DNA of 64,000 nt, from the NCBI GenBank assembly GCA_022703585.1, contig JAKLDJ010000001.1, forward strand, positions 118,891-182,890. Direction: 5' to 3'. Of this stretch, positions 1,671-17,182 are shown piece by piece. Position 1 is the stretch's first letter. Each line of letters begins with the position of its first letter. This stretch comes from Candidatus Omnitrophota bacterium. GTDB taxonomy: Bacteria > Omnitrophota > Gorgyraeia > Zapsychrales > JAKLDJ01. The notes beneath the pieces were generated by a model, which saw only the letters and a list, made by a program, of their open reading frames with translations, did not search any database and had not been told where the DNA came from. A program made the translations under genes and the position numbers.

Positions 1671-1868
1671 TTATCTTTTGGAAATTCTAATAAAGTGCCC
1701 GACCGACCGGTCATAGGTCCGCTCGGCGCTATCCGAGAAATAACATGCCGGAAGTTCTCCCTGAGAACGGTGATACTCCAGACATTCACAGCAGATACCT
1801 TTCCTGGAACAACCGGCGTAGCTACAATTGCAATTTTTGAGATTTCTGGCTTTATTGGTACACTCCAT
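1671..1868 (-). CDS. small cysteine-rich protein (DUF6485-like)
   Basis: 65 aa with the pattern C-x6-C-x-C...C-x6-CC-x-C typical of small Cys-rich proteins of anaerobes. It is preferred over the overlapping plus-strand ORF 1695..1925 because of this conserved Cys spacing. Confidence 0.45.
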
Positions 1869-1879
1869 ACGCCTCTCCT

Positions 1880-3508
1880 CTATTCCGACAATCTGACGAT
1901 AACGCCTTTCTGGCGCGCCTTGTAAAAAGCAAACTTTAGCATTCTAAGCCCAAGAAACAGGTACACGCCAATCAATCCAAAACCCTTAAGTAGGCTGTGG
2001 CTTAAAAGCGGCTCAAAACCAAAACTGGCCCGGAAATATTCAAGAAAATAGGTTATGGGAATAAATTGCGCGATGACAAACAAGAATTTCGGCAAGGTAT
2101 CGACCGGATAATAGATCCCGCAGATAAGCATAAACAGATAAGCAAACATCCAGGCGGTAATCTCTGCCTTCTGCCCGAAAATAAGAATTAAAAAACTCAC
2201 CAGAAGCCCGAGTAAAAGCGCGCAGCCAAAAATCCCCAGCAAAAATACGCTTACCACGAATATCGACGGGAATTTAAAACCGAAAAGGACAATCGCTGAA
2301 ACTCCCAAAATAAAGAAAATCGCTATCCCCCGGACAATACCGATAATCCATGAGCCGAATAAATGCTCCGACTCTCCCACCGGAGCCAGAAAGGTGTGTT
2401 TCATGCTTTTTGACCACACCTCGTAAAGGAGACTGTAGGCGACATCCAACTGGCTGACCTGTAAAATTCCCGAAGCAATAGCGCCGGTCATTACAAACGC
2501 CAGCGCTTTTTCCTGAAGCTCTAGATAACTTCCCAAAAGCCCGATAGAAATAAGCCCCACAATCGGCCAAAACACTAATTCCACAAACGCAAAGAAATTC
2601 CTGACGGCAAATTTGTAATTCCGGTAAGTAAAGGCTGCCGACCTTTGAAGCCACAGGGCTATCCTTTTAAGAAATCCTATCTTCGGAATTTGAAGCGGTG
2701 CCTGGGCAAGATCGACATTCGATACTTCGCTTTTAGACACCGGAATCGTGTCCGTCTTTATGTGCGCTAATTCAACAAAGACCCCTTCTAAATCCTTTTT
2801 GCCCTGTGCCTGTTTTAATTCCTGCGGACTGGCCAATCTTAAGACATGCCCGTGCCGGATAAACGCTATCCTCCGGCACATCGATTCGGCCTCGTGCATG
2901 TTGTGGGTGGTTAAAAGAATGGTGACTTTGGTTTTCTTAAAAATATCCAGGATGATTTCGCGGGTCTTGATAGCCACATCCGGGTCAAGCCCGACCGTAG
3001 GCTCGTCGAGAAAGATGATTTTAGGTTCATTTAAAAGGGCCTTGGCGAGGGATAATTTTTGTTTTGTGCCGCTGGAGAGCTCGTCAAATCTCTGACGGAA
3101 AACTTCTTCCAGGCTAAACATTTCGATCAGCCTATCGATACGATTTCTTAAAGTCTTTCTGTCCAGCCCATACAACATGCCATAAAATTTTAAGTTCTCT
3201 TCAACCGTCAGGCTCCAGGGAAAGTTAGGATGCCCGGAGGACATGTTTAAAATAGTGCGCAAATAATCAAAGTTCTTGGGGATGAGTTTTATTCCGAAAA
3301 TCTCAACCGTCCCTGTATCCGGCAAAAGGAGCGTAGAAAGAATATTAAGAAAAGTCGTCTTACCGGCGCCGTTAGGCCCTAAGATACCCAGAATCTCTCC
3401 GGAATATATTTCCAGGTTAATATCATCAAGCGCCCGGATCTTTTCAAGCCCTCGAGACTGAGAAACGAAACTTTTTCTTAGATGCTCAACTTTTATGGCA
3501 GTTTGCAT
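1880..3508 (-). CDS. fused ABC transporter: ATP-binding domain plus ABC-2 type permease
   Basis: The N-terminal 240 aa carry Walker A (GPNGAGKTT), the ABC signature ([15 protein letters not shown]), Walker B ([12 protein letters not shown]) and the H-loop. The C-terminal ~270 aa form a six-TM ABC-2 permease. Confidence 0.85.
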
Positions 3509-3545
3509 AGGTGTTTCAGTCTTTAGCCCGGATCCGGATTCGATA

Positions 3546-4028
3546 CTATCCTTTTATTGCTTTTCGTTTCAACAGAGTGACGACAACGAGATAGCCTACA
3601 AACGCAGCCGCAAGACCAACAATAACATAGCCGACAATCAGGGGCATGAGGATTTTTAATATTGAGACATCCCACAAATCTTTCCAGTGAAAATCTTTAA
3701 CGAGAAGCTCGCACTGGTCATAAACATTGCGCCAATCACAACCGGTTAAAAAAGATCCGGCTTTAACCGCGAGCAAAAACGTCACAAAACTAAGCCAGGT
3801 ATTGGTCAGGACACTGCCCAAAAGCGCTGCGGCCTTGTTAACCCTGAAAACGGCCGCCAAAACCAAAGACGCCACTGGCCCTGCCCCGGGAAATATCCCC
3901 AAGAACACGCCTAACCCAAACCCCAGGGCCGTCCTGTGCGGAGAATCGTTGATCTTGACGAGTTTTTCGTAGAGGACTTTTAAGAAATATTTCAGGCGGT
4001 CAATGATGTTTCTTTTTGAACTTTCCAT
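3546..4028 (-). CDS. DUF2062 family membrane protein
   Basis: 160 aa with the characteristic DUF2062 motif (HRTALGFGLGVFLGIFPGAG) and three TM segments. Confidence 0.7.
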   Translation of the reverse strand: MESSKRNIIDRLKYFLKVLYEKLVKINDSPHRTALGFGLGVFLGIFPGAGPVASLVLAAVFRVNKAAALLGSVLTNTWLSFVTFLLAVKAGSFLTGCDWRNVYDQCELLVKDFHWKDLWDVSILKILMPLIVGYVIVGLAAAFVGYLVVVTLLKRKAIKG

Positions 4029-4046: not shown

Positions 4047-5024
4047 TCATGATTTTACCCTGACCACATCCCCTGCGGTTTTTTTAACCACGACACCCGA
4101 ATCCTTACGGATTAAAAGCCCGCCGTCTTTGTCAATGTCAACGGCGACACCCTCGATCATTCCGCCGGGATCGGTAATCTTGATGCGTTTATTTAAAGTG
4201 ACCGAAAGCCCCTTCCAGCACTGGGCAATGGCCGCAAACCCGTGTTTGTTTAATTCGCCGTAACGCCTCTCGACCTGCCGCAAGATTTCCTTGGTTAATT
4301 CGACCCGGGAAACCGGCCCCTGCAAAATTCCGCGCAGGGACGTTGCCCCCTCGGGCAGAGCATCGGGCCTCGTATTGACATTGATTCCGATGCCGATAAC
4401 AACAAACTTAACACGGTCCACCTCGGCATTTAATTCCGTCAAAATACCGGCAATCTTCTTATCGTCAACCAATAAATCATTAGGCCATTTAATCAGGGCC
4501 GAAACACCCGTCACCTGCTTTATGGCTTCGCTGACGGCGACCGCCGTCAAAAGCGTAAGGCGGGATACTTCCGACGGGGAAGACAAAGGCCGCAGGATAA
4601 TCGACAGATAAATTCCCTTACCCTTAGGTGACGACCAGTTTCTCCCGAGCCTGCCGCGGCCCCTGGACTGCCCCTCAGCCAAAACAACCGTGCCTTCGGG
4701 AGCATTGTGCATCCCCAGATCAAAAGCAATGTCCATGGTAGAATCCAGCGAGTCATAGGCGACAATCTTCTTGCCAACAACCTTGGTAGAGAGGCCAAAT
4801 TGAATTTCATGGGGAAATAACTTGTCCGGGGACGATTCCAGCCGATAGCCTAGATGAGGAACAGCGACGATCTCGTAGCCTTCTTTTTTAAGCTCCTGGA
4901 TATATTTCCAGATAGCGGCACGGCTGATATTAAGCGCGCCGCTAATATCCTCCCCGGAAATAAATCCATCAGCTTTCTTTAGAAAATCGATAATTTTTTC
5001 TTGCATAGTCTGAGAATAGCTCAA
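4047..5024 (-). CDS. birA: bifunctional biotin--[acetyl-CoA-carboxylase] ligase and biotin operon repressor BirA
   Basis: N-terminal HTH (ISGEDISGALNISRAAIWKYIQELKKEG), the ligase core with the GRGRLGRNW biotin-binding loop, and the C-terminal SH3-like domain. The ORF-track start at 5024 is a TTG; an in-frame ATG at 5006 (MQEKII...) is the more likely start. Confidence 0.9.
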   Translation of the reverse strand: MSYSQTMQEKIIDFLKKADGFISGEDISGALNISRAAIWKYIQELKKEGYEIVAVPHLGYRLESSPDKLFPHEIQFGLSTKVVGKKIVAYDSLDSTMDIAFDLGMHNAPEGTVVLAEGQSRGRGRLGRNWSSPKGKGIYLSIILRPLSSPSEVSRLTLLTAVAVSEAIKQVTGVSALIKWPNDLLVDDKKIAGILTELNAEVDRVKFVVIGIGINVNTRPDALPEGATSLRGILQGPVSRVELTKEILRQVERRYGELNKHGFAAIAQCWKGLSVTLNKRIKITDPGGMIEGVAVDIDKDGGLLIRKDSGVVVKKTAGDVVRVKS

Positions 5025-5036
5025 AAAATATCATCT

Positions 5037-5066
5037 ATTATCGCATTTTAATTTTGGGATTGTCAA
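5037..5066 (-). promoter_or_regulatory. sigma70-like promoter (TTGACA-18-GATAAT) for birA
   Basis: The minus strand reads TTGACAatcccaaaattaaaatgcGATAAT, about 30 nt upstream of the birA ATG. It diverges from the promoter of the 5169 gene. Confidence 0.4.
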
Positions 5067-5094
5067 CTTCTATAGATTTTCTCGCCCAAGCTAA

Positions 5095-5123
5095 TTGACC
5101 TTTGAAAACAGGTATACTATAAT
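5095..5123 (+). promoter_or_regulatory. sigma70-like promoter (TTGACC-17-TATAAT) for the 5169..6935 gene
   Basis: The plus strand reads TTGACCtttgaaaacaggtatacTATAAT, about 45 nt upstream of the ATG at 5169. Confidence 0.5.
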
Positions 5124-5168
5124 TGAATATCAAACAACGCAATAAGCAGGCCAACAAAAACCTATCCC

Positions 5169-6935
5169 ATGCACCGAGAACAAAAACATAAAATCCCCGC
5201 CGCAAAAGACCGAATCGAATTTAAAGACGTCATCCCTCTGATCAAAGACGGGTTAGATAAAAAAGGGACTCTCGATTTTGAAGTTACCGGCCAAAGCATG
5301 ATGCCAGTGTTTATTCCCGGCGATAAAATTCACGGACAACGCGTCGCTTTTGAGCAACTACGCTGCGGCGATATTGTTATTTTTGAGACACAAAACCAGC
5401 TCACCGTCCACCGGATCATCTCCCTGGGAAACCCGTTTTGCGTTATCCTCAAAGGGGACAATGTCGAGAAACCCGATATCCCGATTGCCCGGGATAATAT
5501 AATCGCCAGAATTTCCCGCTTCGAGAGCGGTTCCTTATATATTGACCTGGAAATCCCCCGTTGGCAGAAAACGAACGGCCTGCTGGCTAAGGCCTCCTCC
5601 TGGGAACTTAAAAGGCCTCATTTTCTGACGCGGATAATCTCCGGCACCTTGCGGTTCTTTGCTGCCCTAACCAACCCTGACCTGGCCGATCTCGTTCGTC
5701 GGTGCAACAACAAAGAAACCCTGCAAAAGCTGGAAAAAGAAATAATCCTTAAGTTGTGCGACAAGGAAATAACCGAAACGGATAAGAAATATATCGGTCA
5801 AACCTTACGCCGATACTTAGACTGGGAAGAATTCTTTTCTTTGATTGTTTACAACAACGTCGGGCCGATCGTTTTTCGCAACCTCTCAAAAGTCAATACC
5901 GAAGATATCCCCGCTTGGGTGATTGAAAATCTTAAACAAAGCTACGTGCATAGCTTCTTAAAAACCGCCCCGCTTTTTTATGACCTTTCGCAATTTCTAA
6001 AAGAGATTAAGAAAAATAAAATTCCCGTTATTATCCTTAAAGGCGCTGCCATTTCCGAGAAGATTTACGGCGACACCTCCCTGCGGCCGATGGAGGATAT
6101 CGATATCCTGGTTAAAAAAGAGGATTGGCCGTCTATCCGGGAAACCTTAATCAAGCTCGGCTACATCAATAAGGAGAATCTCGACCTTCTGGATCTTGAA
6201 AATCTCTCTGCCGTTGCGATGGAACGGCACATCTCTTACGAAAACAAGAACGGGACAAAACTTGAGATTAAATTCTATTTATTCTCCCTGGATTTTCCCG
6301 ACTTTGCGCACCCGGAAGAATACTGGAAAGAAGCCGTCCCGCAGAAAATTGCCCAGGTAGAAGTTCTCACCCTTTGCCCCGAAGACCAGTTCCTGTATCT
6401 GGCCAGCCGCCTGATCAACGTCGGGTTCCGGCACCTTTTGTGGTTCTGCGACCTGAAGGAATTTCTGCTCTATTATCCAAAAATTGATTGGGACAGGATT
6501 GAAGAGAAAGCGATAAAACGAAAAGTAACAACCGCGCTGTATTACACGCTGGCCATATTAAAAGAAGAATTTCACGTCAATACCATCCCCGCGGGAACCC
6601 TGGAGAGAATCCGGCCTGCGTATCTTCGAAGGAAACTCTTTGAATGGTTTTTTAATTATAAAAACACCGGTTTTCGACAACCGGCCAAGACCCATCTTTA
6701 CCCCAACCCGCTGATCGCGAATTGTCTTCTTTTGGGGAAATTTTCGCTTAATATCAAAGACATCTTTAAGATGTTACGCTATACGTTAAGGGTGATTTTC
6801 CCGTCCCAAAAGTATATCGCCTACCGTTATAAAAACCGAATTCCAGTGCCTTTTCTGGGGGGATACGGGGCAAGAATTAGGCTGCTTTTTTTAAATCTTT
6901 GGAATATGTTGCGGGCACCCTTCACAAATCCTTAG
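5169..6935 (+). CDS. fusion of an S24/S26-family peptidase domain and an uncharacterised nucleotidyltransferase (NTP_transf_5-like); RiPP-cluster component
   Basis: The N-terminal ~120 aa carry the Ser/Lys dyad motifs of LexA/signal-peptidase-like proteases (TGQSMMPVFIPGDKI ... VILKGDNVEKPD). The C-terminal ~400 aa resemble the 'uncharacterised nucleotidyltransferase' family found in lasso-peptide/HprK-kinase clusters (ILKGAAISEKIYGDTSLRPMEDIDILV). The gene converges on the ABC permease, with a 4-nt end overlap. Confidence 0.75.
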   Translation: MHREQKHKIPAAKDRIEFKDVIPLIKDGLDKKGTLDFEVTGQSMMPVFIPGDKIHGQRVAFEQLRCGDIVIFETQNQLTVHRIISLGNPFCVILKGDNVEKPDIPIARDNIIARISRFESGSLYIDLEIPRWQKTNGLLAKASSWELKRPHFLTRIISGTLRFFAALTNPDLADLVRRCNNKETLQKLEKEIILKLCDKEITETDKKYIGQTLRRYLDWEEFFSLIVYNNVGPIVFRNLSKVNTEDIPAWVIENLKQSYVHSFLKTAPLFYDLSQFLKEIKKNKIPVIILKGAAISEKIYGDTSLRPMEDIDILVKKEDWPSIRETLIKLGYINKENLDLLDLENLSAVAMERHISYENKNGTKLEIKFYLFSLDFPDFAHPEEYWKEAVPQKIAQVEVLTLCPEDQFLYLASRLINVGFRHLLWFCDLKEFLLYYPKIDWDRIEEKAIKRKVTTALYYTLAILKEEFHVNTIPAGTLERIRPAYLRRKLFEWFFNYKNTGFRQPAKTHLYPNPLIANCLLLGKFSLNIKDIFKMLRYTLRVIFPSQKYIAYRYKNRIPVPFLGGYGARIRLLFLNLWNMLRAPFTNP

Positions 6936-7732
6936 GCAAAAACAATTGTCCCTCTTTTTTTAGTATACCGGATAGCCTTCTTTAGCACAAAGAGGCTCAA
7001 GGGAAATAATAAAACTGCGAATCCTGCCAGCACAACCAGAATATCCTGAAGCATCCCGATAGAATATCCCTTTAAGAATGCCAGCCTCAAACCCTCAAAG
7101 ACGTAGGTCGACGGAAGAAACATGGCTAGCTTTTGTAACGGCTGGGGAAAAACCGTTACGGGAAAATAGGCGCCGCCTAAAAGCCACATAAGATTAGTCA
7201 GCGTTCCGGCAAGGGGGTCACCTTTTTTCAGTATAATAATGCACGCGGCGGCACCGATACCCACCGATAAAAACGAGACCGTCGCTAGCAAACCGATCAC
7301 TAAAACCGACAATAAATTAGCCGAACTAAAATCGGCCCCGAAAATGGCCCCTAAGAACAGGAAGAATCCTGCCGCCAGAAAACCCATCATCAGATTATAG
7401 GCACCGAGAGAAAATATAATTCCCATAGTTTTCATCGGTACTGCCAAAAGCGGCTCGAGAGTTCCCGACCAGTGTTCGCGCGATACCGAATTAATCAGCC
7501 CGTTAACCGCAGAATCAAGATAGGATGCCGCTACCAATCCGATCAGGACAAAAGAGAAATAGTTTCCTCCGTATTTTAAAAGATATCCTTCCCCCTTGCC
7601 GCCGATAAGGCCGGAAAGATAATAGAACATGAAGACCGATATGGCGATGCCTACCCAACGGATACAAAAAGAAATTGTATAGCTGGTATCGATTAAGAAA
7701 TCGCGTTTAATGAAAGAAAATATCTTCCGCAT
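6932..7732 (-). CDS. ABC-2 type transporter permease (exporter of the RiPP-like cluster)
   Basis: 266 aa with six predicted TM helices and ABC-2 topology; directly downstream of the ATPase gene. Confidence 0.75.
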   Translation of the reverse strand: MRKIFSFIKRDFLIDTSYTISFCIRWVGIAISVFMFYYLSGLIGGKGEGYLLKYGGNYFSFVLIGLVAASYLDSAVNGLINSVSREHWSGTLEPLLAVPMKTMGIIFSLGAYNLMMGFLAAGFFLFLGAIFGADFSSANLLSVLVIGLLATVSFLSVGIGAAACIIILKKGDPLAGTLTNLMWLLGGAYFPVTVFPQPLQKLAMFLPSTYVFEGLRLAFLKGYSIGMLQDILVVLAGFAVLLFPLSLFVLKKAIRYTKKRGTIVFA

Positions 7733-7755
7733 TTAATAAAATCACTCCCTTTATT

Positions 7756-8583
7756 TCATGTTGCGATAAAAAAATCGTAAATTTCCTTTAAATCCGCGCT
7801 GGGGTCTCCCGCCTGCCTTCTTAACGACTCAAGGGTTCCCTGAGCCTTCAGACGGCCGCGGTCAAGAATCGCTATCTCGTCGGAGATATCAGAAACTTCC
7901 TCTAGAAAATGGCTGGCCATGAGAACTGTTTTATTTCTCTTTTTGACCAGTTCTTCTCTTATAAAGGTTCGCACGCGTTGCGCCATCTGGGGGTCCAAGT
8001 TTTTGGTAGGTTCATCCAAAAGCAAAACCGGGGCGTCATTTAATAAACCCCGCGCCAATGCAAACCTTTGCCTGACGCCTTGTGAATTCTCCTGGAACAT
8101 ATTGTCCAGATATTCCGAGAGTTCAAATACATTCGCCAGATATTTAATTTTCTCTTTCATCTGAGCCTTTGAAAGATTATATAGCGCGGCGTAAAATTCG
8201 AGATTTTGCCTTCCCGTCAGCCGAATATAGAAATTCTTATTTTCTCCCGTCACCAAGCCGATATGGCGCCTTGCCTCTAAACCCTTTTTAACCACATCGA
8301 ATCCATTGATGCTGGCGCTTCCACTATCAGGCAGAATAATCGTCGCCAGGATTCTGATAAGCGTTGTCTTTCCCGAACCGTTGGGGCCGACAAGCCCCAA
8401 GAGTTTTCCCTGCCTTATTGTTAGGTTGATACCATCACAAGCCGTAATGATCTTCTTAAGAGGAAGAGAAAAAATTGCGGACAAACACCAGGGTGGTTTT
8501 GAATAGAAATTCTTATTAAGATGAGAAATCTGAATCGGATATTCCATCAACTCTTTTCCAATAGGTCCCTGACCATTCCGCAT
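7756..8583 (-). CDS. ABC transporter ATP-binding protein
   Basis: Walker A (LVGPNGSGKTT), a Q-loop, the signature motif (NSQGVRQRFALARGL) and Walker B (LLLDEPTKNLD). Confidence 0.85.
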   Translation of the reverse strand: MRNGQGPIGKELMEYPIQISHLNKNFYSKPPWCLSAIFSLPLKKIITACDGINLTIRQGKLLGLVGPNGSGKTTLIRILATIILPDSGSASINGFDVVKKGLEARRHIGLVTGENKNFYIRLTGRQNLEFYAALYNLSKAQMKEKIKYLANVFELSEYLDNMFQENSQGVRQRFALARGLLNDAPVLLLDEPTKNLDPQMAQRVRTFIREELVKKRNKTVLMASHFLEEVSDISDEIAILDRGRLKAQGTLESLRRQAGDPSADLKEIYDFFIAT

Positions 8584-9551
8584 GCCTTATCCAGATTCTG
8601 GTCATTGTAATACAGGCGATAGGCCTTGACTTGATGAAGCAGGCCGCTTAAAACCTTAAAATATTCTCCCGAAACGTGACGGGAACCGGGTTTGATATAC
8701 AAAAATTCCTCCCGGATAAGGCGACTTAAAACAATGTGCTTATTAAGGGTTTGCATCCGAACCTTGGAAGATTTTGCATAGCGGGGAAAGATCAATAAAA
8801 GAGGTTTTGCCTTGCGCCTCATTGCTTTAGGAAAGGCACGGCCGGCATCGATGATGGCCTTGTCGTTTTTCCCTGAAGATTTTAAAATGGCCTTTTTGAA
8901 TTCAGGAAAAAGATAAAGCGAACTTTTCCTGATCTTTGGAAAAGAAGAAAAAGGGGCGCACTGGATACCCGATCCGGACTCACGCAGAATCACTTCGTCA
9001 TCGGCAAGATAATCAAAGCCCATTTTTGATAACGCCATCGCCAAAATACTCTTGCCGCTGCCTGATTTGCCGGTAAAGAGCACTCCCTTATCTCCCAGGG
9101 AAACAAATGAAGAATGAAAAAGGTAAAAGCCATGCAACTGCAACAAACATTTTAACGGTTGGAAGAAAATAAGGTCAAACAAGAGATCTTTTTCAATATC
9201 CGGTGGAGTCGCGACAAAGGAGGTGATGGTATCATGTTGCGGATCCACTGTCGTCCTGATGGTCCGCGGGCCGGCATCGAGATGAAGCTGCCGGTTTTCC
9301 CTAAACTGATTGTAAAATAACGTAAAACCGTGAAAACAGTCGCACCGGGAATGCGGGAGAAGCGAATATCTTGTCCGATGATACGCCCCATGAATAGTTA
9401 GTGCCGCCCTGCTTGCATTCGGGGCAACCGCCGAGGAAGGAAAATGGCGAATAATGAGATCGAATATACCCCGGTCGTTAGAGGTGATATTCAGTTTGAA
9501 ATCCGGAAAATAAAGGGAGGTTTTGAGTTTTGTGGCCATGAATGATATCAA
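8547..9551 (-). CDS. HPr kinase/phosphorylase-related kinase (HprK C-terminal-domain-like; 'HprK-related kinase A/B' type)
   Basis: 334 aa. The P-loop block (FTGKSGSGKSILAMALSKMGFDYLADDEVIL) matches the HprK catalytic-domain consensus GxSGxGKS...L..G..L.ADD. There is no HPr-binding N-terminal domain. The ORF-track start is a TTG; an in-frame ATG lies 4 codons downstream. Confidence 0.75.
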   Translation of the reverse strand: MISFMATKLKTSLYFPDFKLNITSNDRGIFDLIIRHFPSSAVAPNASRAALTIHGAYHRTRYSLLPHSRCDCFHGFTLFYNQFRENRQLHLDAGPRTIRTTVDPQHDTITSFVATPPDIEKDLLFDLIFFQPLKCLLQLHGFYLFHSSFVSLGDKGVLFTGKSGSGKSILAMALSKMGFDYLADDEVILRESGSGIQCAPFSSFPKIRKSSLYLFPEFKKAILKSSGKNDKAIIDAGRAFPKAMRRKAKPLLLIFPRYAKSSKVRMQTLNKHIVLSRLIREEFLYIKPGSRHVSGEYFKVLSGLLHQVKAYRLYYNDQNLDKACGMVRDLLEKS

Positions 9552-9645
9552 AAATCATTGCCCATCCTTGATCAAGAATCTGGCAATCAATCCTGTCAAT
9601 AACCTTTCGCGCGGCACCTGTTGATTTCCAACACAGCAAAACCGT

Positions 9646-9789
9646 CTACGTAAGCAAAGCAGAAGTAGTCGCTGCTGCCATCGCATTCTTTATTTTTAGA
9701 TATTTCACCAGGCACGGTTTTTCATACTCTTTGCTGCTGCGTTTTCGGGACTGCTTTTCGGTCTTTTTATCCTTGCCTTGCTCTTGCAT
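9646..9789 (-). CDS. unannotated 47-aa small ORF between the rSAM and kinase genes; candidate precursor peptide
   Basis: ATG at 9789, preceded by a strong AAGGAG Shine-Dalgarno at 7-nt spacing. The ORF overlaps the last 23 nt of the rSAM gene and encodes MQEQGKDKKTEKQSRKRSSKEYEKPCLVKYLKIKNAMAAATTSALLT (a Lys-rich N-terminus, one Cys, and an Ala/Thr/Ser-rich C-terminus). It is below the ORF-track size cutoff. Confidence 0.25.
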   Translation of the reverse strand: MQEQGKDKKTEKQSRKRSSKEYEKPCLVKYLKIKNAMAAATTSALLT

Positions 9790-10816
9790 AAGCCTGCTCC
9801 TTTTCTCGATGATAATCACTGTATATCTTGTTAATACGGCAGATCTCCAGGGGTTTTGCCTTCAAGTCGCCGTGTTCTAAGAATGCAAGGTCCGGCCTCC
9901 GGCATAGGCAGACGGTTTTATCCCTGCAATCATAGCAGCCGAAATCTTTCTCGGCAAGGCTGTGCAGCCAGTTTAATTTCGGAGAATTGCGCCAAATCTC
10001 GCGCAAATTCTGCTGCCGCAAATCCCCTACTTCTATACGTAATGTCACGGAAACATACACCTTGCCGTTCGAAGAAATATGGATAGAACTCCTGCCCCCG
10101 TCAAGGGTACGACCGCTGCGATACTTTTTATTTCGATTATTAAGGCCCCACGTCAGCAAACGCCGCTTAAAAGCTGATTTTAATTGTTCTTCCGTCGATC
10201 GTAAGCGAAGCGGGCCACGCTCTCCGGAAACCCCCGGCATAATAATAAAATCGGCAATAAAGTCGCATCCTTCTTCTTTTGCCATCTTCTTTATCGAGGT
10301 TAATTCGTGGAAATTATTATTAAACACTATGGTCGCAATAAGAACAGACATACCGTTGTCCCGGCAAAGCCGAATAGCCCTCATTGTCCTTTCAAAAGAA
10401 CCGGGAACCCGGGTAATCGACTCGTGGACTTGGGGACTTGCCCCATAAACACTAAAATGGACACTCAAGGGCTGAATCGCCTTTAACCGTTTGATGTTGT
10501 TTCTGCTAATCATCAGCCCGTTGGTTTTAATATCAAACCCAAACCCCATCTTTCTGGCAAACCTTAAGATATCCCATATGTCTTCACGCAAGAATACTTC
10601 CCCTCCGCTTAAAATGAGTCGTATGCACCCCTCCTCTTTTAGCTGGATAAGGATACCCTTGATTTCTTCAAGGGAGAGCTCATGAGCGCAATCGGTATTC
10701 CTAAGACAATGGATGCAATCTTCATTGCATCGGTTCGTCAGGTCTATCTGGGCATTCCAAAGAATACGCCTGTGCTGCATCCTTAGCCCCAGCTCCCGGA
10801 CATCTCGTAAACGCAT
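9767..10816 (-). CDS. radical SAM/SPASM domain peptide-modifying enzyme (PqqE-like maturase)
   Basis: CxxxCxxC radical-SAM cluster motif (CNEDCIHC) about 25 aa from the N-terminus. The C-terminal Cys-rich SPASM region reads GCYDCRDKTVCLCRRP. Confidence 0.85.
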   Translation of the reverse strand: MRLRDVRELGLRMQHRRILWNAQIDLTNRCNEDCIHCLRNTDCAHELSLEEIKGILIQLKEEGCIRLILSGGEVFLREDIWDILRFARKMGFGFDIKTNGLMISRNNIKRLKAIQPLSVHFSVYGASPQVHESITRVPGSFERTMRAIRLCRDNGMSVLIATIVFNNNFHELTSIKKMAKEEGCDFIADFIIMPGVSGERGPLRLRSTEEQLKSAFKRRLLTWGLNNRNKKYRSGRTLDGGRSSIHISSNGKVYVSVTLRIEVGDLRQQNLREIWRNSPKLNWLHSLAEKDFGCYDCRDKTVCLCRRPDLAFLEHGDLKAKPLEICRINKIYSDYHREKEQAYARARQG

Positions 10817-10818
10817 CT

Positions 10819-12078
10819 TTACGCCGACACCTTTCTTAAGATTCCTGCCCCCTCCAACATAAACATAAAATCATCAACATCTCTCGACACCGTATCGCTG
10901 GAGATATCATACAAGGAAGAAACCTCCGCCTTGGCCTTCTCTAAATCTTGCGTTTCAAGCAGGGCTTGCCAGATTCTTGTCCCTGTGCTGTTGAGGACAA
11001 CGGTGCGAAAATCCTCGCCGACAATCACCTTGATCCGATCTCTGTTTAGAAACCAGGTTACCGGAGAATTGGTAAGCCAATACGACCCGTTATGCCGGAT
11101 AGAGGCTTGTCTTCCGGCAAATTTATTTGACGGAACCCTGCAGGCTTTGTTATTTTTTGTGCCGTAAAAAAATCCTCTTAGCCTCGTCCATGCCCAGCCC
11201 GAAGAATACGCTACCGCTTTTAGAAAGTCTACCAAGGAGAAGATCGCCTCCGCTTTCCTCATCCCCCTTAATACACTGCGGACATTCCAGAGCACAATCG
11301 ATGAGATCTGTCCGACAATGACAGCAAAACTGTCCCTGGAGGTATTCCCTTTAAGGGCATCAAAAAATCCCCAATATTTCCGATAAAGCGTGCAATCCGC
11401 TTTTCCGAATTCAAAATGGTGTTTGATAAATTCAGCCAAGGTCCCGATGTGTTGATGATAGACAACGGCTTTCGGCACAAATCTGATTTCATACCCGGCT
11501 AAAGAAACGCGCCACCCCATTTCCGTATCTTCGCTGGTCACCAAGTCCTCGTCGAAATAACCGATTTCATCCAATATGCTTTTGCGGCAAATGGCATTGG
11601 CCGTAATCACGCGCGGCAAATCTTCCTCGCAGAGACCCTCAATGCTGATTTGCTGAGAAAGAAGCGCCTTGGTTTGCGCATACCGCTCAAAAATAGTCTC
11701 CGGCCTGTGGTCCAGAATGTTTCCTCCGCAAAAAGCGATGCCGTCATCCGATAGAATTTCTTCGTATAGAATCGTAAGCCAATCAGCGGTGACGATACAA
11801 TCGGAATCAGTAAAAGCAATAAAAACGGCTTTTGCGTTCTTTATCCCGCAATTTCTCGCCCAAGCCCTTCCTCGATTGGGCTCAAAAAGATAGGTGACCG
11901 GATATCTTAAGATGATTTCTTTAGTGCGGTCAGTGGAATGATTATCGACAACGATAATTTCCCTATCCTGCTCCGGAAAATCCAATCGCATCAAGGAATC
12001 CAGGCACGCCGGAAGCTTTTCCTCGCCGTTATAGACCACCACAACAATAGAAACTTTTGGCTTGCTATCTGATGCCAT
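10819..12078 (-). CDS. family-2 glycosyltransferase fused to a C-terminal PqqD-like (RRE) domain
   Basis: The N-terminus is a GT2 fold (VSIVVVVYNGEEKLPACLDSLMRLDF ... IIVVDNHSTDRT ... FTDSDC). The C-terminal ~90 aa (WFLNRDRIKVIVGEDFRTVVLNSTGTRIWQALLETQDLEKAKAEVSSLYDISSDTVSRDVDDFMFMLEGAGILRK) has the PqqD/RiPP-recognition-element signature. Confidence 0.8.
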   Translation of the reverse strand: MASDSKPKVSIVVVVYNGEEKLPACLDSLMRLDFPEQDREIIVVDNHSTDRTKEIILRYPVTYLFEPNRGRAWARNCGIKNAKAVFIAFTDSDCIVTADWLTILYEEILSDDGIAFCGGNILDHRPETIFERYAQTKALLSQQISIEGLCEEDLPRVITANAICRKSILDEIGYFDEDLVTSEDTEMGWRVSLAGYEIRFVPKAVVYHQHIGTLAEFIKHHFEFGKADCTLYRKYWGFFDALKGNTSRDSFAVIVGQISSIVLWNVRSVLRGMRKAEAIFSLVDFLKAVAYSSGWAWTRLRGFFYGTKNNKACRVPSNKFAGRQASIRHNGSYWLTNSPVTWFLNRDRIKVIVGEDFRTVVLNSTGTRIWQALLETQDLEKAKAEVSSLYDISSDTVSRDVDDFMFMLEGAGILRKVSA

Positions 12079-12139
12079 CTCTCGACCCTTGCTTTAAAAA
12101 TACCTTTAAAACCGGTATTGATTGCAATCAGTAGTTCTT

Positions 12140-12424
12140 TTAAGCCTTTGAAACAATAAGGCCTTCCGTTTCCAGGTCTTTTATAAGGCTACGAATATCC
12201 TGGCTGGCTTTTTTGTAGTCAAGGCCATACTCCTCGCGGATCTTCTCAATAATTTGCTCACCGGTCTTGTTTTCATTTAAAAGCGACCAAGCGAAGGACC
12301 CTGTTTTGTTAAGGCTATAATACCGTCCGGAATCGAGATCGAGTATCACGACCTCTCCGTCGATAGTACGCCAGACTATTTTTTCAGTGTCGATACGGTA
12401 ACGCTTTGATTGTTTTTTATTCAT
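12140..12424 (-). CDS. PqqD family peptide-modification chaperone (RiPP recognition element)
   Basis: 94 aa (WRTIDGEVVILDLDSGRYYSLNKTGSFAWSLLNENKTGEQIIEKIREEYGLDYKKASQDIRSLIKDLETEGLI) is a typical stand-alone PqqD. It has no Shine-Dalgarno of its own; its ATG overlaps the stop of a 25-aa upstream ORF. Confidence 0.75.
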   Translation of the reverse strand: MNKKQSKRYRIDTEKIVWRTIDGEVVILDLDSGRYYSLNKTGSFAWSLLNENKTGEQIIEKIREEYGLDYKKASQDIRSLIKDLETEGLIVSKA

Positions 12425-12494
12425 GGGATGGAAAACGATATACGGCCGGTATTTGGGATCGCACGATAATATAGCCTCCGCGAAACAAATTCAT
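12417..12494 (-). CDS. 25-aa upstream ORF translationally coupled to pqqD-like gene; possible leader/precursor peptide
   Basis: The ORF is ATG(12494)...TAA(12417) and encodes MNLFRGGYIIVRSQIPAVYRFPSHE. Its stop overlaps the PqqD start in a CATGAATAA arrangement, which is classic translational coupling. Its own SD is weak, and a TTGACA box lies 21 nt upstream. Confidence 0.15.
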   Translation of the reverse strand: MNLFRGGYIIVRSQIPAVYRFPSHE

Positions 12495-12639
12495 TTTATC
12501 ATACCCTACTTTCATGTCAACAGACTAAAGCGCCCAAGAATAGAAAAAACTCGCCTCACAGCAGCGCATTCCGCCCGCCCATAAAAAAAGGGATTATATT
12601 TTCATATAATCCCCTTCAAGCAGATTGAGACAACTGCAG

Positions 12640-13122
12640 TTACTTAAGAGCCAGTTCCGGTTCCTTTTTGGTAATCGTCACTTCCGGATGTTTGGCAAGA
12701 TTGGTCTTCTTGACCGTCACCGTATGATAGTTGGTGTCATTCTTGTAATAATCAAGCCCGCGCTCGATATACTGTTCATCAATTTTCTTGGGCGCAAAGA
12801 ATTTTCTGCACATATCTCTGGCTGTCTGCGGGTCAAACGCCTTACAGCAGTAGACATCGACCGAAATATAATCCTTAGGCGTCAGCGTATGAATAACAAT
12901 CGAGCTTTCGATCAACGGTGCCCAGCCCGAGAGACCGGCTTTGTCCGGAAAACGTTTCTCGTCGCTGCGAAATATATTCGGCGGTGCCTGCTTTTCCATC
13001 CCCAGCTTATCAACCATCTCATCTAAGAACTGGTAACATAAGGTCAAGTCATCGCATGCACCGGTTTTGCAGCCGTAGAGATCCAACAAAAGCTGATAAC
13101 CAAATACTTCATTCTTCATCAT
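12640..13122 (-). CDS. speH: S-adenosylmethionine decarboxylase proenzyme, small pyruvoyl-dependent type
   Basis: Conserved motifs LDLYGC and the processing/active-site block SGWAPLIESSIVIHTLTPKDY (Glu-Ser-Ser self-cleavage site). The protein is 160 aa, with a C-terminal extension of about 30 aa relative to typical 125-aa SpeH. It is preferred over the antisense ORF 12625..13026. Confidence 0.7.
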   Translation of the reverse strand: MMKNEVFGYQLLLDLYGCKTGACDDLTLCYQFLDEMVDKLGMEKQAPPNIFRSDEKRFPDKAGLSGWAPLIESSIVIHTLTPKDYISVDVYCCKAFDPQTARDMCRKFFAPKKIDEQYIERGLDYYKNDTNYHTVTVKKTNLAKHPEVTITKKEPELALK

Positions 13123-13296
13123 AGTCGCGCTAATCGGAGTCCTCCTTGTTAATGATTAACTTAATTATTTTTATACTATATCTACAGAAGAATGCAAGGA
13201 AAAAATATATTTTTTATAATATTTTTTTAATTTATTTCCGGAGATTTTGAGTACACCGATGCCTTACCGGAAGAAAATAGAGCATTTTTGATGGAA

Positions 13297-13494
13297 TTAG
13301 CGAATGGATACGAGCAAAAAAACTAAAACAACAATAAATACAATAAAAAACCATACCACTTTCCGGTTTGCGTACCGAATCCGGCTTAAAAATCCGTTCC
13401 CGGCCCTCTCCAAGCTCTCTCCGCAGAAATGGCAAAGCAGGGCATCGTCATCGCTGATATAATTTCCGCAGGCAGGGCACTTGTATTCAGCCAT
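13297..13494 (-). CDS. small zinc-ribbon membrane protein
   Basis: 65 aa with CPACG...CHFCG (C4 zinc ribbon) followed by a C-terminal TM helix. There is a strong SD (AAGGAG) 6 nt upstream of the ATG. Confidence 0.5.
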   Translation of the reverse strand: MAEYKCPACGNYISDDDALLCHFCGESLERAGNGFLSRIRYANRKVVWFFIVFIVVLVFLLVSIR

Positions 13495-13685
13495 AAAACT
13501 CCTTATGATTTAAAATAAATGGTTTTCTTGTCGTTATTATTACATCTGCCATCGTATCCGTCAAAAATATTATTATTTTTTCGCTCTCTCTTGTTCCATA
13601 TTTCTATTTGCATTTTAAAAGAGAGTGATTTAATATGACTAGGCATCGGTAATAATTTCCTGGCACAAAATCGGAGAATGCACTC

Positions 13686-14471
13686 ATGGATACATATTCT
13701 ATTTTAAAGAAAGTACGAGCTCAAAAACCCCTCATCCATCATTTAACCAACTGGGTGACGATTTATGACTGCGCCAACATCGTTAAGGTTTTCGGCGCTT
13801 CCCCGGTAATGGCCCATGCCCCCGAAGAAGCCGCCGAAATGACACAGATGGCATCGTCGCTGGTACTGAATATCGGCACCTTAACCGTTGATTTTGTCGA
13901 AGCGATGAAATTATCGGTCAAGGCGGCCAATAAAAAAGGAATTCCGGTTATCCTGGATGTCTGCGGCGCCGGGGCAACACAATTACGAGATAAAAAATGT
14001 TTTGAACTGGTTGACAATTTCCGCATCGACATTATCAAAGGCAACACCTCGGAAATCGCGCGTATCGCCGGAGAAAAGATTCAGACCAAAGGCGTTGATT
14101 CCGCTGATGTTAAAAATAACTTGGCCGATCTGGCAAGAGGCCTTTCCCTTAAATATAAAAATACAGTCGTTATCACCGGCGAGAAGGACATTATTGCGGA
14201 TGGCAAAGGGCATTGTACCGTTAAAAACGGCCACGCCATGATGGGCCAAATTGTCGGGACAGGATGCATGGCCGCATCGGTTATCGGCACCTTCGCGGCG
14301 GTTGAAGACAATTTAAAGAAGGCAGCAATGGCAGCCCTGTGTTGTTTCGGTATTGCCGGAGAATTGGCCGCGAGAGAGGCAACCGGGCCCGGATCATTTA
14401 AAGAGCGGCTATTTGACGAAGTTTACAATTTAAACAAAGAGAAGATCCAAAAAATGCAGAAGGTTAGATGA
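13686..14471 (+). CDS. thiM: hydroxyethylthiazole kinase
   Basis: 261 aa with ThiM family motifs (LIHHLTNWVTIYDCANIVKVFGASPVMAHAPEE; VDIIKGNTSEIARIAG). Confidence 0.9.
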   Translation: MDTYSILKKVRAQKPLIHHLTNWVTIYDCANIVKVFGASPVMAHAPEEAAEMTQMASSLVLNIGTLTVDFVEAMKLSVKAANKKGIPVILDVCGAGATQLRDKKCFELVDNFRIDIIKGNTSEIARIAGEKIQTKGVDSADVKNNLADLARGLSLKYKNTVVITGEKDIIADGKGHCTVKNGHAMMGQIVGTGCMAASVIGTFAAVEDNLKKAAMAALCCFGIAGELAAREATGPGSFKERLFDEVYNLNKEKIQKMQKVR

Positions 14472-15073
14472 TACGCGGTTACTACTTTATTACCGACGAA
14501 AGGCTGAGCAAAAACGGCGTTACCAACGATGTCCGTAGCGCCGTCGCTGCCGGTGTTAAAATAATTCAATACCGCAATAAAATCGCCGATACCGCTACGA
14601 TGCTCAAAGAAGCATTCCTGCTTAAGAAAATTTGCAGAAATTCCGCTTTTATCGTTAACGACAGAATCGATATTGCCCTTGCCGTTAATGCCGATGGTGT
14701 CCACATCGGCATGGAAGATATGCCCTATACGGCCGCGCGAAAACTTCTTGGCAAGAACAAAATAATCGGCGTTACCGTCCACACCCTTACGGAGGCGATT
14801 ACGGCAGCAAAAAAAGGCGCTGACTATTTGGGAGTCAGCCCAATCTTTGCCACTGCCACAAAGAAAAACGCGGGGCCCCCCAGCGGAACAGCACTGATCA
14901 AATCCATAAAAAAGAATTGCGATATTTCGATTGTGGCTATAGGCGGGATTAATTTACAGAATGCACCGCAGGTTGTTGAAGCCGGAGCAGATGCCTTGTG
15001 TGCAATTTCAGCGGTTGTCACCAAAGGCAACGTTAAAAAAGAAATCAGGAAATTCCAGGAACTTTTTCGCTAA
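14468..15073 (+). CDS. thiE: thiamine-phosphate synthase
   Basis: 201 aa, TMP-synthase TIM barrel (GYYFITDERL...; IIQYRNK; YLGVSPIFATATK). A 4-nt ATGA overlap with thiM indicates an operon. Confidence 0.9.
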   Translation: MIRGYYFITDERLSKNGVTNDVRSAVAAGVKIIQYRNKIADTATMLKEAFLLKKICRNSAFIVNDRIDIALAVNADGVHIGMEDMPYTAARKLLGKNKIIGVTVHTLTEAITAAKKGADYLGVSPIFATATKKNAGPPSGTALIKSIKKNCDISIVAIGGINLQNAPQVVEAGADALCAISAVVTKGNVKKEIRKFQELFR

Positions 15074-15095
15074 CACCTAAGTTTACCGCAAAAAT

Positions 15096-15854
15096 TTATT
15101 TGGGTTCAGCCGCCTTCCCTCTCCCAAAGATCGCATGAAACGTTTCTCTTAAGATACCTCCCGTGCCTTTAATGACAGCAGCCGTATTCTTGGTTGTCTC
15201 ATCGAAAATCTTTGTACCGCCGGACAAAGCCGACGCCACCGGCTTCTGGATCGAATCGAGGTTAAATTTTATAAGATTCTTGATCGCCGTACCGGTAACC
15301 GCCTTCACGATAACGATACGTACGACAGAATGAATTCCGTCGAGATTACGAAATTCCTCATTCAGGTTAAGGTTGTACTCACGAATCACCGTGGGGGTTT
15401 TCGAATAATCCTTAAAAACGATCTTTGAGATCTTCAGCCGCAGGCGAGCGATAGCAAAGTGACGGGATGATTTTGATTCCGAAATTTTAAAGGCCTTCAA
15501 ATTCAAAACACCCTGTTTATTTCTGGCAATTAAGAATTCTTTTAACTCCACGCGCATATCCCGAATCTGAATTCTATCGCTTAAGACTGAACTCAAATTA
15601 TAATCGGCATAAACCGCCGGCGCATCAGCCAAAACAGAATCCTCAAATTCATCGGGATTAAATATTCTTAACCCCTTGATATCGATAAACTGTTTTGATA
15701 AAACGCCCAGGCGAAAATGCCCTATCTCGATATCAAGGCCGGTCGCTGTCTTAACCGCTTTTTCGACAAGGAATTTATAGATAAGATCTTGCGCAAAATC
15801 AACGGCAAGGAAAATACCTGCGAGAAAAATAATAATGGTAATTTTCTTAATCAC
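15096..15854 (-). CDS. membrane-anchored protein of unknown function; paralog of 548..1531
   Basis: 252 aa with an N-terminal TM helix; collinear similarity to 548..1531 along the whole length. Confidence 0.6.
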   Translation of the reverse strand: MIKKITIIIFLAGIFLAVDFAQDLIYKFLVEKAVKTATGLDIEIGHFRLGVLSKQFIDIKGLRIFNPDEFEDSVLADAPAVYADYNLSSVLSDRIQIRDMRVELKEFLIARNKQGVLNLKAFKISESKSSRHFAIARLRLKISKIVFKDYSKTPTVIREYNLNLNEEFRNLDGIHSVVRIVIVKAVTGTAIKNLIKFNLDSIQKPVASALSGGTKIFDETTKNTAAVIKGTGGILRETFHAIFGRGKAAEPK

Positions 15855-15970
15855 AATCTCTGTCTTTCCTAAAACATTTTAGCCTTTGCCAAAACACGGC
15901 TTTAACATAAAACAAGGGCATCTCTTTAGATAATGCCCCTCCTGCTTCATCTTATAATCTTTAAAAAGGT

Positions 15971-16903
15971 CTATCCTCTGTACTCAGCGAACAAATCAGT
16001 GCTGAGATAGCGCTCGCCCGTACTGGCAAGAATAACAACAATCATCTTACCTTTATTTTCGGGCCTTTTGGCCACCTGCAATGCCGCACAAACAGCCGCC
16101 CCCGAGGAGATTCCGGCTAAAATACCCTCCTCACGCATCAGCCTTTTGGCAAAAGTAAAAGACTCTTCATTATCTACTTGGATAATCTCATCGATTATTT
16201 TCGTGTCAAGAATGCCGGGGATAAACCCCGCGCCGATTCCCTGAATTTTGTGAGGACCGGGTTTTCCCCCGGAGAGAACCGGCGAACCTTTGGGCTCAAC
16301 GGCTATTGCCTTAAACGAAGCCTTTCTTTTCTTGAGAACCTCCGCTATCCCTGTAATCGTCCCGCCCGTTCCCACGCCGGCAATCAGAATATCGACTTTG
16401 CCATCGGTATCTTTCCAGATTTCCTCGGCGGTCGTTTTGCGATGAATCTCGGGATTGGCAGGATTCTCAAATTGTTGCAAGATAAGATACCGCTCGTCCT
16501 CTTTCGCCATCTCCGTCGCCCTGTTGACCGCGCCCCGCATCCCTTCTACGCCGGGTGTTAAGATAATCTCCGCACCAAAAGCCCTCAAAAGAGCCCGTCT
16601 TTCTAAGCTCATCGTTTCCGGCATCGTTAAAACCAATTTATACCCTTTAACTGCGCAGACAAAAGCCAAGGCAATACCCGTGTTGCCGGAAGTCGGCTCA
16701 AGCAAAACGGTGCCCTTCTTGATCCTGCCGTCTTTCTCTGCCGCTTCAATCATGCTTAGGCCGATACGGTCCTTGACCGAACCCGCGGGATTAAAGAATT
16801 CCAGCTTTGCCGCGACATCGGCAACGCAACCCTCGGTAAGCTTATTCAATCTTACCAAAGGAGTTTTACCGATCAGTTCGGTAATATTATTCGCAATATT
16901 CAT
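15971..16903 (-). CDS. cysK: cysteine synthase A (O-acetylserine sulfhydrylase)
   Basis: 310 aa with the PLP lysine motif ([10 protein letters not shown]), [10 protein letters not shown], and a [18 protein letters not shown] substrate loop. Confidence 0.92.
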
Positions 16904-16995
16904 TTTTAAAAGGCCTCCATCCTATTAAAATCGTATACGATTAGAAATCTCAAATCGGCGTAATTTTACCCACAGAACATCTAATTAATAGATTG

Positions 16996-17024
16996 ATTAT
17001 AACACCCAGCCAAACTTTGTTCAA
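16996..17024 (-). promoter_or_regulatory. sigma70-like promoter (TTGAAC-17-TATAAT) for cysK
   Basis: The minus strand reads TTGAACaaagtttggctgggtgtTATAAT, about 90 nt upstream of the cysK ATG. A GGAGG Shine-Dalgarno lies 11 nt before the ATG. Confidence 0.5.
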
Positions 17025-17182
17025 CCCAGATTTTGCGCTACGTTTTTATTCTCGACGGGAATCGACAAATGGAAGAATACAACGCAAAATCTGCCTTCGG
17101 CCGCCTTTGGCGGGGCTGTGCAGAATCCGGGTTCAATCGGTAACGGGTGCACACCTTGGGTTTCTGAAGAATCGGATCACCC

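Follow-up and report, generated by a model that had tools for sequence, protein, structure and literature searches.

The 64,000-nt stretch of Candidatus Omnitrophota bacterium DNA considered here (contig JAKLDJ010000001.1; the whole stretch is referred to as the window) contains on its minus strand an open reading frame (ORF) of 47 codons that is a real, conserved gene. It lies in a biosynthetic operon, between the genes for a radical SAM (rSAM) enzyme and an HprK-like kinase, and we are fairly confident that it encodes the ribosomal precursor peptide of this operon. To judge from its protein families, the cluster is most likely an Omnitrophota variant, extended by a glycosyltransferase and a radical SAM enzyme, of the pathway for 'linear polyphosphorylated peptides' (LPPs), which have been described in Bacillota and as restricted to them (Popov et al., Nat Commun 2026, PMC13381572). 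The gene and the parts of its product, compared with the LPP precursor LppA, are as follows:

9646..9789, minus strand: gene for a probable LppA-like precursor peptide, 47 aa plus stop (sequence reading, homologues and a family hidden Markov model, HMM)
9797..9802, minus strand: Shine-Dalgarno sequence AAGGAG, 7 nt 5' of the ATG
9709..9726, minus strand: leader recognition motif Y22-E-K-P25-C-L27 (YxxPxL), with invariant Tyr and Pro and synonymous changes
9679..9789, minus strand: predicted leader M1-M37, placed by register with LppA
9649..9678, minus strand: predicted core AAATTSALLT (or TTSALLT), the hypervariable region after K-[IV]-K, with a predicted boundary

The start codon ATG at 9789-9787 is followed by 47 sense codons and the stop codon TAG at 9648-9646, giving the product MQEQGKDKKTEKQSRKRSSKEYEKPCLVKYLKIKNAMAAATTSALLT. 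Reading of the minus strand thus bears out what a preliminary description of this DNA had reported, namely AAGGAG 7 nt before the ATG at 9789, 47 codons, and an overlap with the stop of the rSAM gene (TAA, 9769-9767), which amounts to 23 nt. The same description held the ORF to be unannotated and below the cutoffs of ORF callers, whereas gene calls for the identical 47-aa product already exist in public records (NCBI, JGI, ENA, Logan; 17 contigs), the NCBI entry reading 'hypothetical protein PL155_02405, Candidatus Omnitrophota bacterium', with no function given.

An ORF of 47 codons is by itself not beyond chance, because four further ORFs, 33-53 aa long, reach into the spacer between the rSAM and kinase genes; its conservation is. 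Since single-sequence searches with the 47-mer (word-indexed, and exhaustive with phmmer against 1.84 billion representatives) returned only the peptide itself, related loci were reached through the genomic neighbours, by way of rSAM and kinase homologues. Homologous small ORFs are present in at least 11 independent related loci, comprising nine Omnitrophota-type clusters and two short contigs (L004, L005, L006/7, L008, L010-12, L013, L014, L015/18/20, L017, L021, P0104 and P0105). The preliminary description had named a lack of conservation in homologous clusters as grounds for giving up the gene, and the opposite is observed: wherever a related cluster is sequenced through the region concerned, it carries one to five such ORFs, in tandem where there are several. 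The product is MHNQDKDKKVEKQPRKSSNKEYEKPCLVKYSKIKNVTAVGTAT in L004, where the rSAM enzyme is 74% identical to that of the window, and ...EKEYEKPSITKYSKLKRAAATTLST in L005 (rSAM 56%). L006/L007 (rSAM 46%) have three tandem copies, ...YKKPRLIKYSKIKTIQASAS..., and L008 (rSAM 43%) has one copy, upstream of the gene for a glycosyltransferase-PqqD fusion. Up to five copies occur in L010-12, five in L015/18/20, three in L014, and one each in L013, L017 and L021, that of L021 standing upstream of PqqD rather than before the kinase. The slot of the gene within the cluster varies between these places and that before the kinase, and the gene is never found outside the cluster. Between the intact copies of L010, at 9731-9985, 10135-10215 and 10486-10572, there are motif-bearing ORFs without an ATG and short fragments (..RYSKIKRI..), which have the look of precursor copies that are decaying or are initiated in another way and would be a sign of ongoing tandem duplication.

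An alignment of 23 members gives the family consensus Y-x-K-P-x-L-x-K-[YF]-S-K-[IV]-K, in which Y22 and P25 never vary and K24 and K29 reach at least 90% conservation, followed by 6-20 C-terminal residues that are hypervariable yet rich in Ala, Ser, Thr and Gly. The Lys-rich N-terminus and Ala/Thr/Ser-rich C-terminus that the preliminary description had seen in this one peptide are thus features of the whole family, and not the possible coincidence of composition that it had allowed for. A family HMM built from the other loci, excluding both the window peptide and L004, matches the window frame 9861..9649 (minus strand) with E=1.9e-10 (37 bits), and the next best of the 1879 stop-to-stop segments in the 64-kb window has E~1. 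When the HMM was built from distant loci only (rSAM at most 46% identical), the frame was still found with E=4.7e-8. A profile of seven family members gave no match among PDB sequences. Because the family HMM matches a single frame, there is exactly one such gene in the window. It also bears on another concern of the preliminary description, that precursor genes might be identified elsewhere in the cluster: no rival precursor was found.

These data bear directly on the possibility that the ORF arose in the spacer by chance, its Shine-Dalgarno-like sequence being present only as part of the rSAM coding region. Frames of 33-53 aa are indeed common in the spacer, the single-sequence searches gave no homologue, and AAGGAG does sit within the rSAM coding region, so that its conservation in L004 is constrained anyway and is not independent evidence. 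Besides L004, a Shine-Dalgarno-like sequence precedes the start in L005, L008, L013, L014 and the first copy in L010, these being the lineages richer in GC, and none is found before the start in the AT-rich lineages L006 and L015. Chance does not, however, account for a family that persists where the neighbouring enzymes are down to 33-46% identical, for the invariant Tyr and Pro, for the gap between the HMM score of this frame and that of any other in the window, or for the existence of tandem paralogues. Moreover, all three nucleotide changes between the window and L004 within YEKPCLVKY are synonymous; the codon-level statistics of the small ORF in this comparison are like those of the neighbouring genes. 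The conservation data refute the chance reading, to which we assign a vanishingly small probability.

The genes around the small ORF were assigned by Pfam and NCBIfam scans. Their order on the minus strand is PqqD, a fusion of a family 2 glycosyltransferase with PqqD (GT2-PqqD), rSAM/SPASM, the small ORF, HprK-like kinase, DrrA-type ABC ATPase and ABC-2 permease, and beside the operon lies a divergent plus-strand gene for a 588-aa fusion of a signal peptidase with an NTP_transf_5 domain:

12140..12424, minus strand: discrete PqqD-type recognition element (RRE) for peptides made on the ribosome and modified after translation (RiPPs) (Pfam PqqD, E=1.7e-18)
10819..12078, minus strand: GT2 glycosyltransferase with C-terminal PqqD/RRE domain (Glycos_transf_2, E=2e-30; PqqD, E=4.8e-9, residues 360-414)
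9767..10816, minus strand: radical SAM enzyme with reduced SPASM domain (Radical_SAM, E=1.4e-22; SPASM, E=7e-7)
8547..9539, minus strand: HprK-like peptide kinase (Hpr_kinase_C, E=1.2e-7; HprK_rel_A, TIGR04352, E=2.4e-15; TIGR04355, E=1.2e-8)
7756..8583, minus strand: DrrA-type ABC transporter ATPase, starting at 8583 or 8547 according to alternative start calls (TIGR01188, E=4e-64)
6932..7732, minus strand: ABC-2 permease (Pfam ABC2_membrane, E=8e-10)
5169..6935, plus strand: fusion of an archaeal/SipW-type signal peptidase I with NTP_transf_5 (sigpep_I_arch, TIGR02228, E=2.9e-12; Peptidase_S24, E=5.7e-6; PF14907, E=7e-50)

The conservation of this arrangement was compared by tblastn with the window proteins. 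Omnitrophota metagenome-assembled genomes (MAGs) share the order PqqD, GT2-PqqD, (rSAM), precursor(s), kinase, ABC, ABC-2, divergent peptidase-NTP_transf_5 and BirA, in which the invariant set consists of RRE, GT2-RRE, kinase, exporter, peptidase-NTP_transf_5 and precursor.

The leader motif of the family connects the peptide to the recognition elements. Discrete lasso-type RREs bind the leader consensus [Y/W]xxPx[L/V/I/A/F/Y] (PMC13381572), which the YEKPCL of the window peptide fits. By its best PDB matches (TbiB1 5v1u, 2e-12; LppB 9x8z_B, 5e-7; also PbaB1 9x90_B and TfuB1), the window PqqD protein is a predicted lasso-type RRE, although its score against the NCBIfam model lasso_PqqD_Strm (62.8 bits) stays below the cut-off of 70. 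In an ungapped alignment its N39, Y66 and D76 fall on N33, Y60 and D70 of LppB, the residues that in the LppB crystal structure fix the kink of the leader Pro and hydrogen-bond the leader Tyr (PMC13381572), so that the Tyr/Pro-fixing residues are kept. Direct reading of the sequence of the PqqD domain fused to GT2 finds the same Asn...Tyr-x9-Asp pattern. GT2-PqqD is present in all nine related clusters compared, cut by the contig end in L006, L015 and L017. Together with its conservation, this [Y/W]xxPx[L/V/I] leader motif supports the proposal of the preliminary description that the ORF is a candidate precursor peptide.

A conserved small protein of the cluster need not be a modified substrate; it could instead serve, as a Lys-rich peptide, in regulation, in immunity or as an accessory of a transporter, for instance, and its strongly basic N-terminus could bind nucleic acid or a membrane. 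Against such a role speaks the match of YxxPxL to lasso-type RREs that keep the residues fixing Tyr and Pro, a hallmark of RiPP precursors, as is the occurrence of multi-copy genes with conserved N-termini and hypervariable C-termini. The clusters also hold no other candidate substrate. We consider a non-substrate role very improbable.

The closest likeness among known systems is to the LPP clusters of Bacillota (LppA/B/K/S/N/D). LPPs are made from the precursor LppA, whose leader consensus is YxxPxVLxHQxIxFETxxS, with a discrete RRE (LppB), an NTP_transf_5 protein (LppN) and an MsbA-like exporter (PMC13381572). LppK, an HprK-like kinase, polyphosphorylates the core residue Ser3, and LppS, a SipW-like signal peptidase I with the catalytic residues S29/H68/D93, removes the leader in an RRE-dependent manner (PMC13381572). 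The models of the LPP core set, which was established by experiment, are PqqD, TIGR04352/TIGR04249 (with TIGR04355 also in the data), TIGR02228 and NTP_transf_5 (Supplementary Data 2, PMC13381572). The same four domain families (PqqD RRE, HprK-like kinase, SipW-type peptidase and NTP_transf_5) occur in the window cluster and in complete related loci, and four of the five LPP enzyme families are common to the window cluster. The precursor is small in both systems; its N-terminal leader, with YxxPx[V/L], is conserved and its C-terminus variable. Neither system has a lasso cyclase or B2 protease. In contrast to LPPs, the system found here belongs to Omnitrophota rather than Bacillota, has the peptidase and NTP_transf_5 domains fused (with a methyltransferase-like domain added in some relatives), and includes an obligatory GT2-RRE fusion plus an rSAM enzyme of the SPASM or B12 type. 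Its cores of about 6-20 aa compare with a total length of 35-200 aa for LPP precursors and a core of 45 aa for LppA.

The individual enzymes are consistent with this comparison. The kinase has the P-loop GKSGSGKS and matches HprK at the superfamily level only, below curated cut-offs; its L004 orthologue (64% identical) matches Pfam ScmC and Hpr_kinase_C. The peptidase-NTP_transf_5 fusion is a putative leader peptidase and phosphate-decorating enzyme. Its match to TIGR02228 reaches 46.7 bits against a cut-off of 51.85, and that to NTP_transf_5 170 bits; the peptidase residues S43 (GQSMMP), H81 (VHR) and D97 (KGDN) do not vary among seven orthologues, and they align with the catalytic motifs of SEC11C. 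In L013 (10643-13400, minus strand) and L021 (8670-11300, minus strand) the peptidase/NTP_transf_5 frame is longer, about 880-908 aa, its first domain resembling a SAM methyltransferase (LDIGCGTGR); this looks like a triple fusion and may be one gene or two in the same frame.

LppA has its Tyr at -16, cleavage after -1, Ala as the first core residue and Ser3 as the phosphorylated residue (PMC13381572). Its leader, rebuilt from the primers given in that study (PMC13381572), is MEENTKREQKLYARPMVLSQQPVRFET, followed by AQSWNK. With the Tyr numbered 0, the LppA cut falls between +15 and +16, the core begins with Ala, and phosphorylation is at +18. Numbered in this way, the family has Ala or Gly at +16 in most of its members and Ser at +18 in many (e.g. 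...KRIQ/AAS...). By analogy, the window peptide would be cut as ...KIKNAM/AAATTSALLT, again with Ala after the predicted site in the same register as LppA; alternatively, a small-x-small cut after A38-A39-A40 would leave TTSALLT and extend the leader to 9670. In the window peptide the core is thus probably only about 7-10 residues long.

Several observations weigh against the assignment to an LPP-like pathway. The matches of the kinase, the peptidase and the RRE to curated NCBIfam models are all under the cut-offs, and the exporter is a two-gene DrrA/ABC-2 system, not MsbA-like. Beyond YxxPx[LV] the leader differs as well, with KYSKIK here and LxHQxIxFET in the LPP consensus, and hhalign against LppA returns a probability of 1.4% over 15 columns, with the Tyr and Pro in register with Y-16 and P-13 of LppA. 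Counted as in LppA, position +18 of the window peptide is Ala instead of Ser, and LppK did not accept Thr (PMC13381572), so the phospho-acceptor is uncertain. The core, moreover, shows no recognisable rSAM target residue, other rSAM types stand in at some loci, and what ties the rSAM enzyme to the peptide is gene order only.

For the favoured LPP-like reading the following sequence of events can be proposed. The motif Y22-x-x-P25-x-L27 of the Lys-rich leader would dock as an extra beta-strand in the cleft of the lasso-type PqqD, and the two recognition elements, one free-standing and one fused to GT2, would present the Ala/Thr/Ser-rich core to the tailoring enzymes. The kinase would phosphorylate a Ser/Thr hydroxyl near the leader-core junction, and NTP_transf_5 and/or GT2 could then attach sugar-type groups. 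The rSAM enzyme may carry out C-H chemistry that is so far not predictable and would be of a non-thioether kind, without Cys. The SipW-like Ser/His/Asp peptidase domain would cut the leader about 16 residues after the Tyr (NAM/AAATTSALLT, or after AAA), and the ABC-2 pump would export the product. In this scheme each enzymatic step is inferred, and so are the place of cleavage and the structure of the end product.

The rSAM enzyme is the least constant part of this scheme. Its conserved Cys residues are C30/C34/C37, C64 and C294/C297/C303/C305/C326, and none precedes the beta-hairpin in the SPASM region. Since only five C-terminal Cys are conserved, this region is probably reduced and holds a single auxiliary cluster. 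A B12-binding rSAM replaces the SPASM type in L013 (5064-6524) and L021 (3274-4698), L014 has both a SPASM rSAM and a B12-binding one (1631-3976), and L017 has no rSAM gene between GT2-PqqD and the precursor. Because B12-binding types replace or accompany the SPASM type, the rSAM step is an accessory, variable tailoring module in this cluster family. The preliminary description had placed the single Cys in the C-terminal core. This residue, C26, the sole Cys of the peptide, instead forms part of the leader motif. Most relatives have another residue there (S, R, K, N, Q, A or T), so that it is not a conserved rSAM target. Most cores in the 23-member alignment are without Cys, and a sactipeptide or ranthipeptide was rejected because there is no conserved core Cys as thioether donor.

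This variability leaves room for a narrower view, in which the peptide is a substrate of the kinase/signal-peptidase/NTP-transferase module only and the rSAM enzyme, perhaps also GT2, acts elsewhere. In its favour, the rSAM type changes by locus (SPASM, B12-binding, both or none) and no conserved rSAM target residue is visible. On the other hand, GT2 is present in every locus and carries its own RRE domain with the Asn/Tyr/Asp pattern, the 23-nt overlap of the rSAM gene with the precursor gene is consistent with one transcript, and variable tailoring enzymes are normal in RiPP families. Restriction to the module alone seems unlikely to us.

PqqD, rSAM/SPASM, GT2 and a small precursor are also shared with mycofactocin (MftA-F), and the peptide could accordingly give rise, as the precursors of mycofactocin and PQQ do, to a small redox cofactor and not to an exported peptide, with PqqD, rSAM/SPASM and an MftF-like GT2 as the core machinery. 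The best NCBIfam match of GT2 is indeed MftF (TIGR03965, E=2e-43), the rSAM enzyme matches MftC and PqqE, and the location of the cluster beside BirA, unchanged in all Omnitrophota loci, suggests vertical inheritance. The scores, however, are far under the cut-offs (148.9 bits against 280 for MftF, 83 against 265 for MftC, TIGR03962, and 74.8 against 381 for PqqE). Cofactor precursors need invariant residues, whereas core and C-terminal residues are not conserved here: there is no conserved C-terminal Val-Tyr (the window peptide ends in LLT), and MftD and MftE are missing. Several divergent paralogues per locus, a dedicated ABC exporter that is always present, and the absence or replacement of the SPASM rSAM in L013, L017 and L021 also argue against a cofactor; kinase, signal peptidase and exporter are foreign to the mycofactocin pathway. 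A mycofactocin system was rejected for its scores and C-terminus, and we give little credence to a cofactor precursor in general.

Phosphorylated and phosphoglycosylated lasso peptides, such as paeninodin and pseudomycoidin, share with the window cluster the RRE type, the leader motif, an HprK-like kinase acting on a linear precursor, and an NTP_transf_5-type nucleotidyltransferase that decorates the phosphate. In the case of pseudomycoidin the nucleotidyltransferase adds hexoses to the phosphate, and a nucleotidyltransferase fused to a leader peptidase has also been reported in lasso systems (PMC8498205). Neither an Asn-synthetase-like macrolactam cyclase nor a transglutaminase-type B2 protease was found among the nine proteins in or beside the cluster (the rest of the window was not scanned protein by protein), and both are likewise lacking in the related loci. 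With no cyclase or B2 protease among the nine scanned proteins, the product cannot be a lasso peptide. The kinase of the lasso systems targets a C-terminal Ser, whereas the C-terminal residue of the window peptide is Thr and is not conserved in the family.

HprK-like proteins also stand beside PqqD in the cassettes defined by Haft (HprK-related kinase A/B, SynChlorMet ScmC/D/E/F, GeoRSP), and in SynChlorMet beside rSAM/SPASM as well. The window cluster was not assigned to the SynChlorMet, GeoRSP or HprK-related kinase A cassettes, since all NCBIfam scores are far under the cut-offs (HprK_rel_A 56 of 200, ScmD 35 of 100, ScmE 95 of 400, GeoRSP rSAM 90 of 400). In the literature library searched, nothing was found on these cassettes, nor on HPr kinase combined with PqqD, radical SAM and glycosyltransferase. 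A glycocin was likewise rejected, as GT2 scores 30.7 bits against 350 for the SunS family (TIGR04195).

The chromosomal setting sets the LPP-like cluster apart from its Bacillota counterparts. BirA adjoins the cluster in all related loci (window 4047-20444; L004, L010, L013, L014, L015, L021), and AdoMet decarboxylase and/or GidA are also near it in three of them. The locus is thus syntenic across the lineage, a pattern indicative of vertical inheritance in Omnitrophota and in contrast to the patchy occurrence of LPP clusters in Bacilli. One of these loci, L013 (CAZEUO010000008.1), is labelled 'uncultured Planctomycetales bacterium', although its cluster and flanking synteny are as in Omnitrophota MAGs and its AdoMet decarboxylase and BirA are 80% and 65% identical to those of the window; the label may be wrong, through an error of taxonomy or binning.

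Going further, it is quite possible, if somewhat less likely than not, that the family represents a distinct RiPP class on an LPP chassis. Very short cores rich in Ala, Ser, Thr and Gly would be phosphorylated, glycosylated by GT2-RRE and modified by the rSAM enzyme, with the leader cut by a peptidase domain fused to the NTP transferase. As the locus has kept one place in the chromosome by vertical descent across the lineage, the product would have a lineage-wide physiological role (e.g. at the cell surface or in host interaction of these ultra-small bacteria) and not be a sporadically transferred antibiotic.

The 47-codon gene is thus the likely substrate gene of a multi-enzyme cluster of an uncultured phylum, and very probably encodes the precursor of an LPP-like RiPP pathway, extended by rSAM and GT2, that is conserved in Omnitrophota. 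The LPP-type pathway, published in 2026 as restricted to Bacillota, would thereby extend to Omnitrophota, and its kinase/signal-peptidase/NTP-transferase module could evidently be combined with leader-guided glycosyltransferase and radical SAM enzymes. For LPPs the final structure and the role of NTP_transf_5 were left open, and partner enzymes were suspected outside the core cluster (PMC13381572). A compact operon with its own glycosyltransferase may serve better to solve both questions, and all parts of the window cluster lie within 7.3 kb (5169-12424), so that it can be tested as it is.

The remainder of the spacer calls for a correction. The rSAM-kinase spacer had been given as 9552-9766 in the preliminary description; it is 9540-9766, because TTG 9551 is not conserved in the closest relative, L004, whereas ATG 9539 (MA[TI]KLKTS) is. 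The kinase most likely starts at ATG 9539, before which no Shine-Dalgarno-like sequence is found at normal distance. This leaves 106 nt (9540-9645) between the precursor stop and the kinase start, 77% identical to L004 where other intergenic regions are 71-84% identical. An RNA element was rejected here, with fold z-scores of about 0 in the window and in L004. No terminator-like site was found on the coding strand in 9540-9645, and Rfam and tRNA searches of the whole window gave no match anywhere. The resemblance between the window and L004 in the frame of 9555..9686 raised the question of a second conserved small ORF. That candidate was discarded: the two are no more alike there than in the intergenic background, an indel interrupts the frame, and all that L005 has at that place is about 30 nt. 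The 106 nt are ordinary intergenic DNA.

At the other end of the operon, a strong promoter-like site lies just upstream of PqqD and is the likely operon start:

12493..12520, minus strand: promoter-like TTGACA-16-TAAAAT, 11/12, with TG (consensus match only)

This site separates PqqD from the AdoMet decarboxylase gene, which was rejected as a cluster member: it is 98% identical to its L004 counterpart, as against 64-74% for the cluster genes, is not beside the cluster in L010, L014 and L015, and looks like a housekeeping neighbour. Upstream of it, a 65-aa gene at about 13297-13494 (minus strand) has a weak Zn_ribbon_3 match; it was dismissed as a precursor, having neither the leader motif nor a match to the family HMM, and seems to have no relation to the cluster. 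About 4.8 kb upstream of the cluster the window encodes a PMT_2-family (protein mannosyltransferase-like) membrane glycosyltransferase (17183-18496, minus strand). In L008 a PMT_2-family gene (4939-6507, minus strand) directly adjoins the precursor gene, and a link of this family to the pathway is possible.

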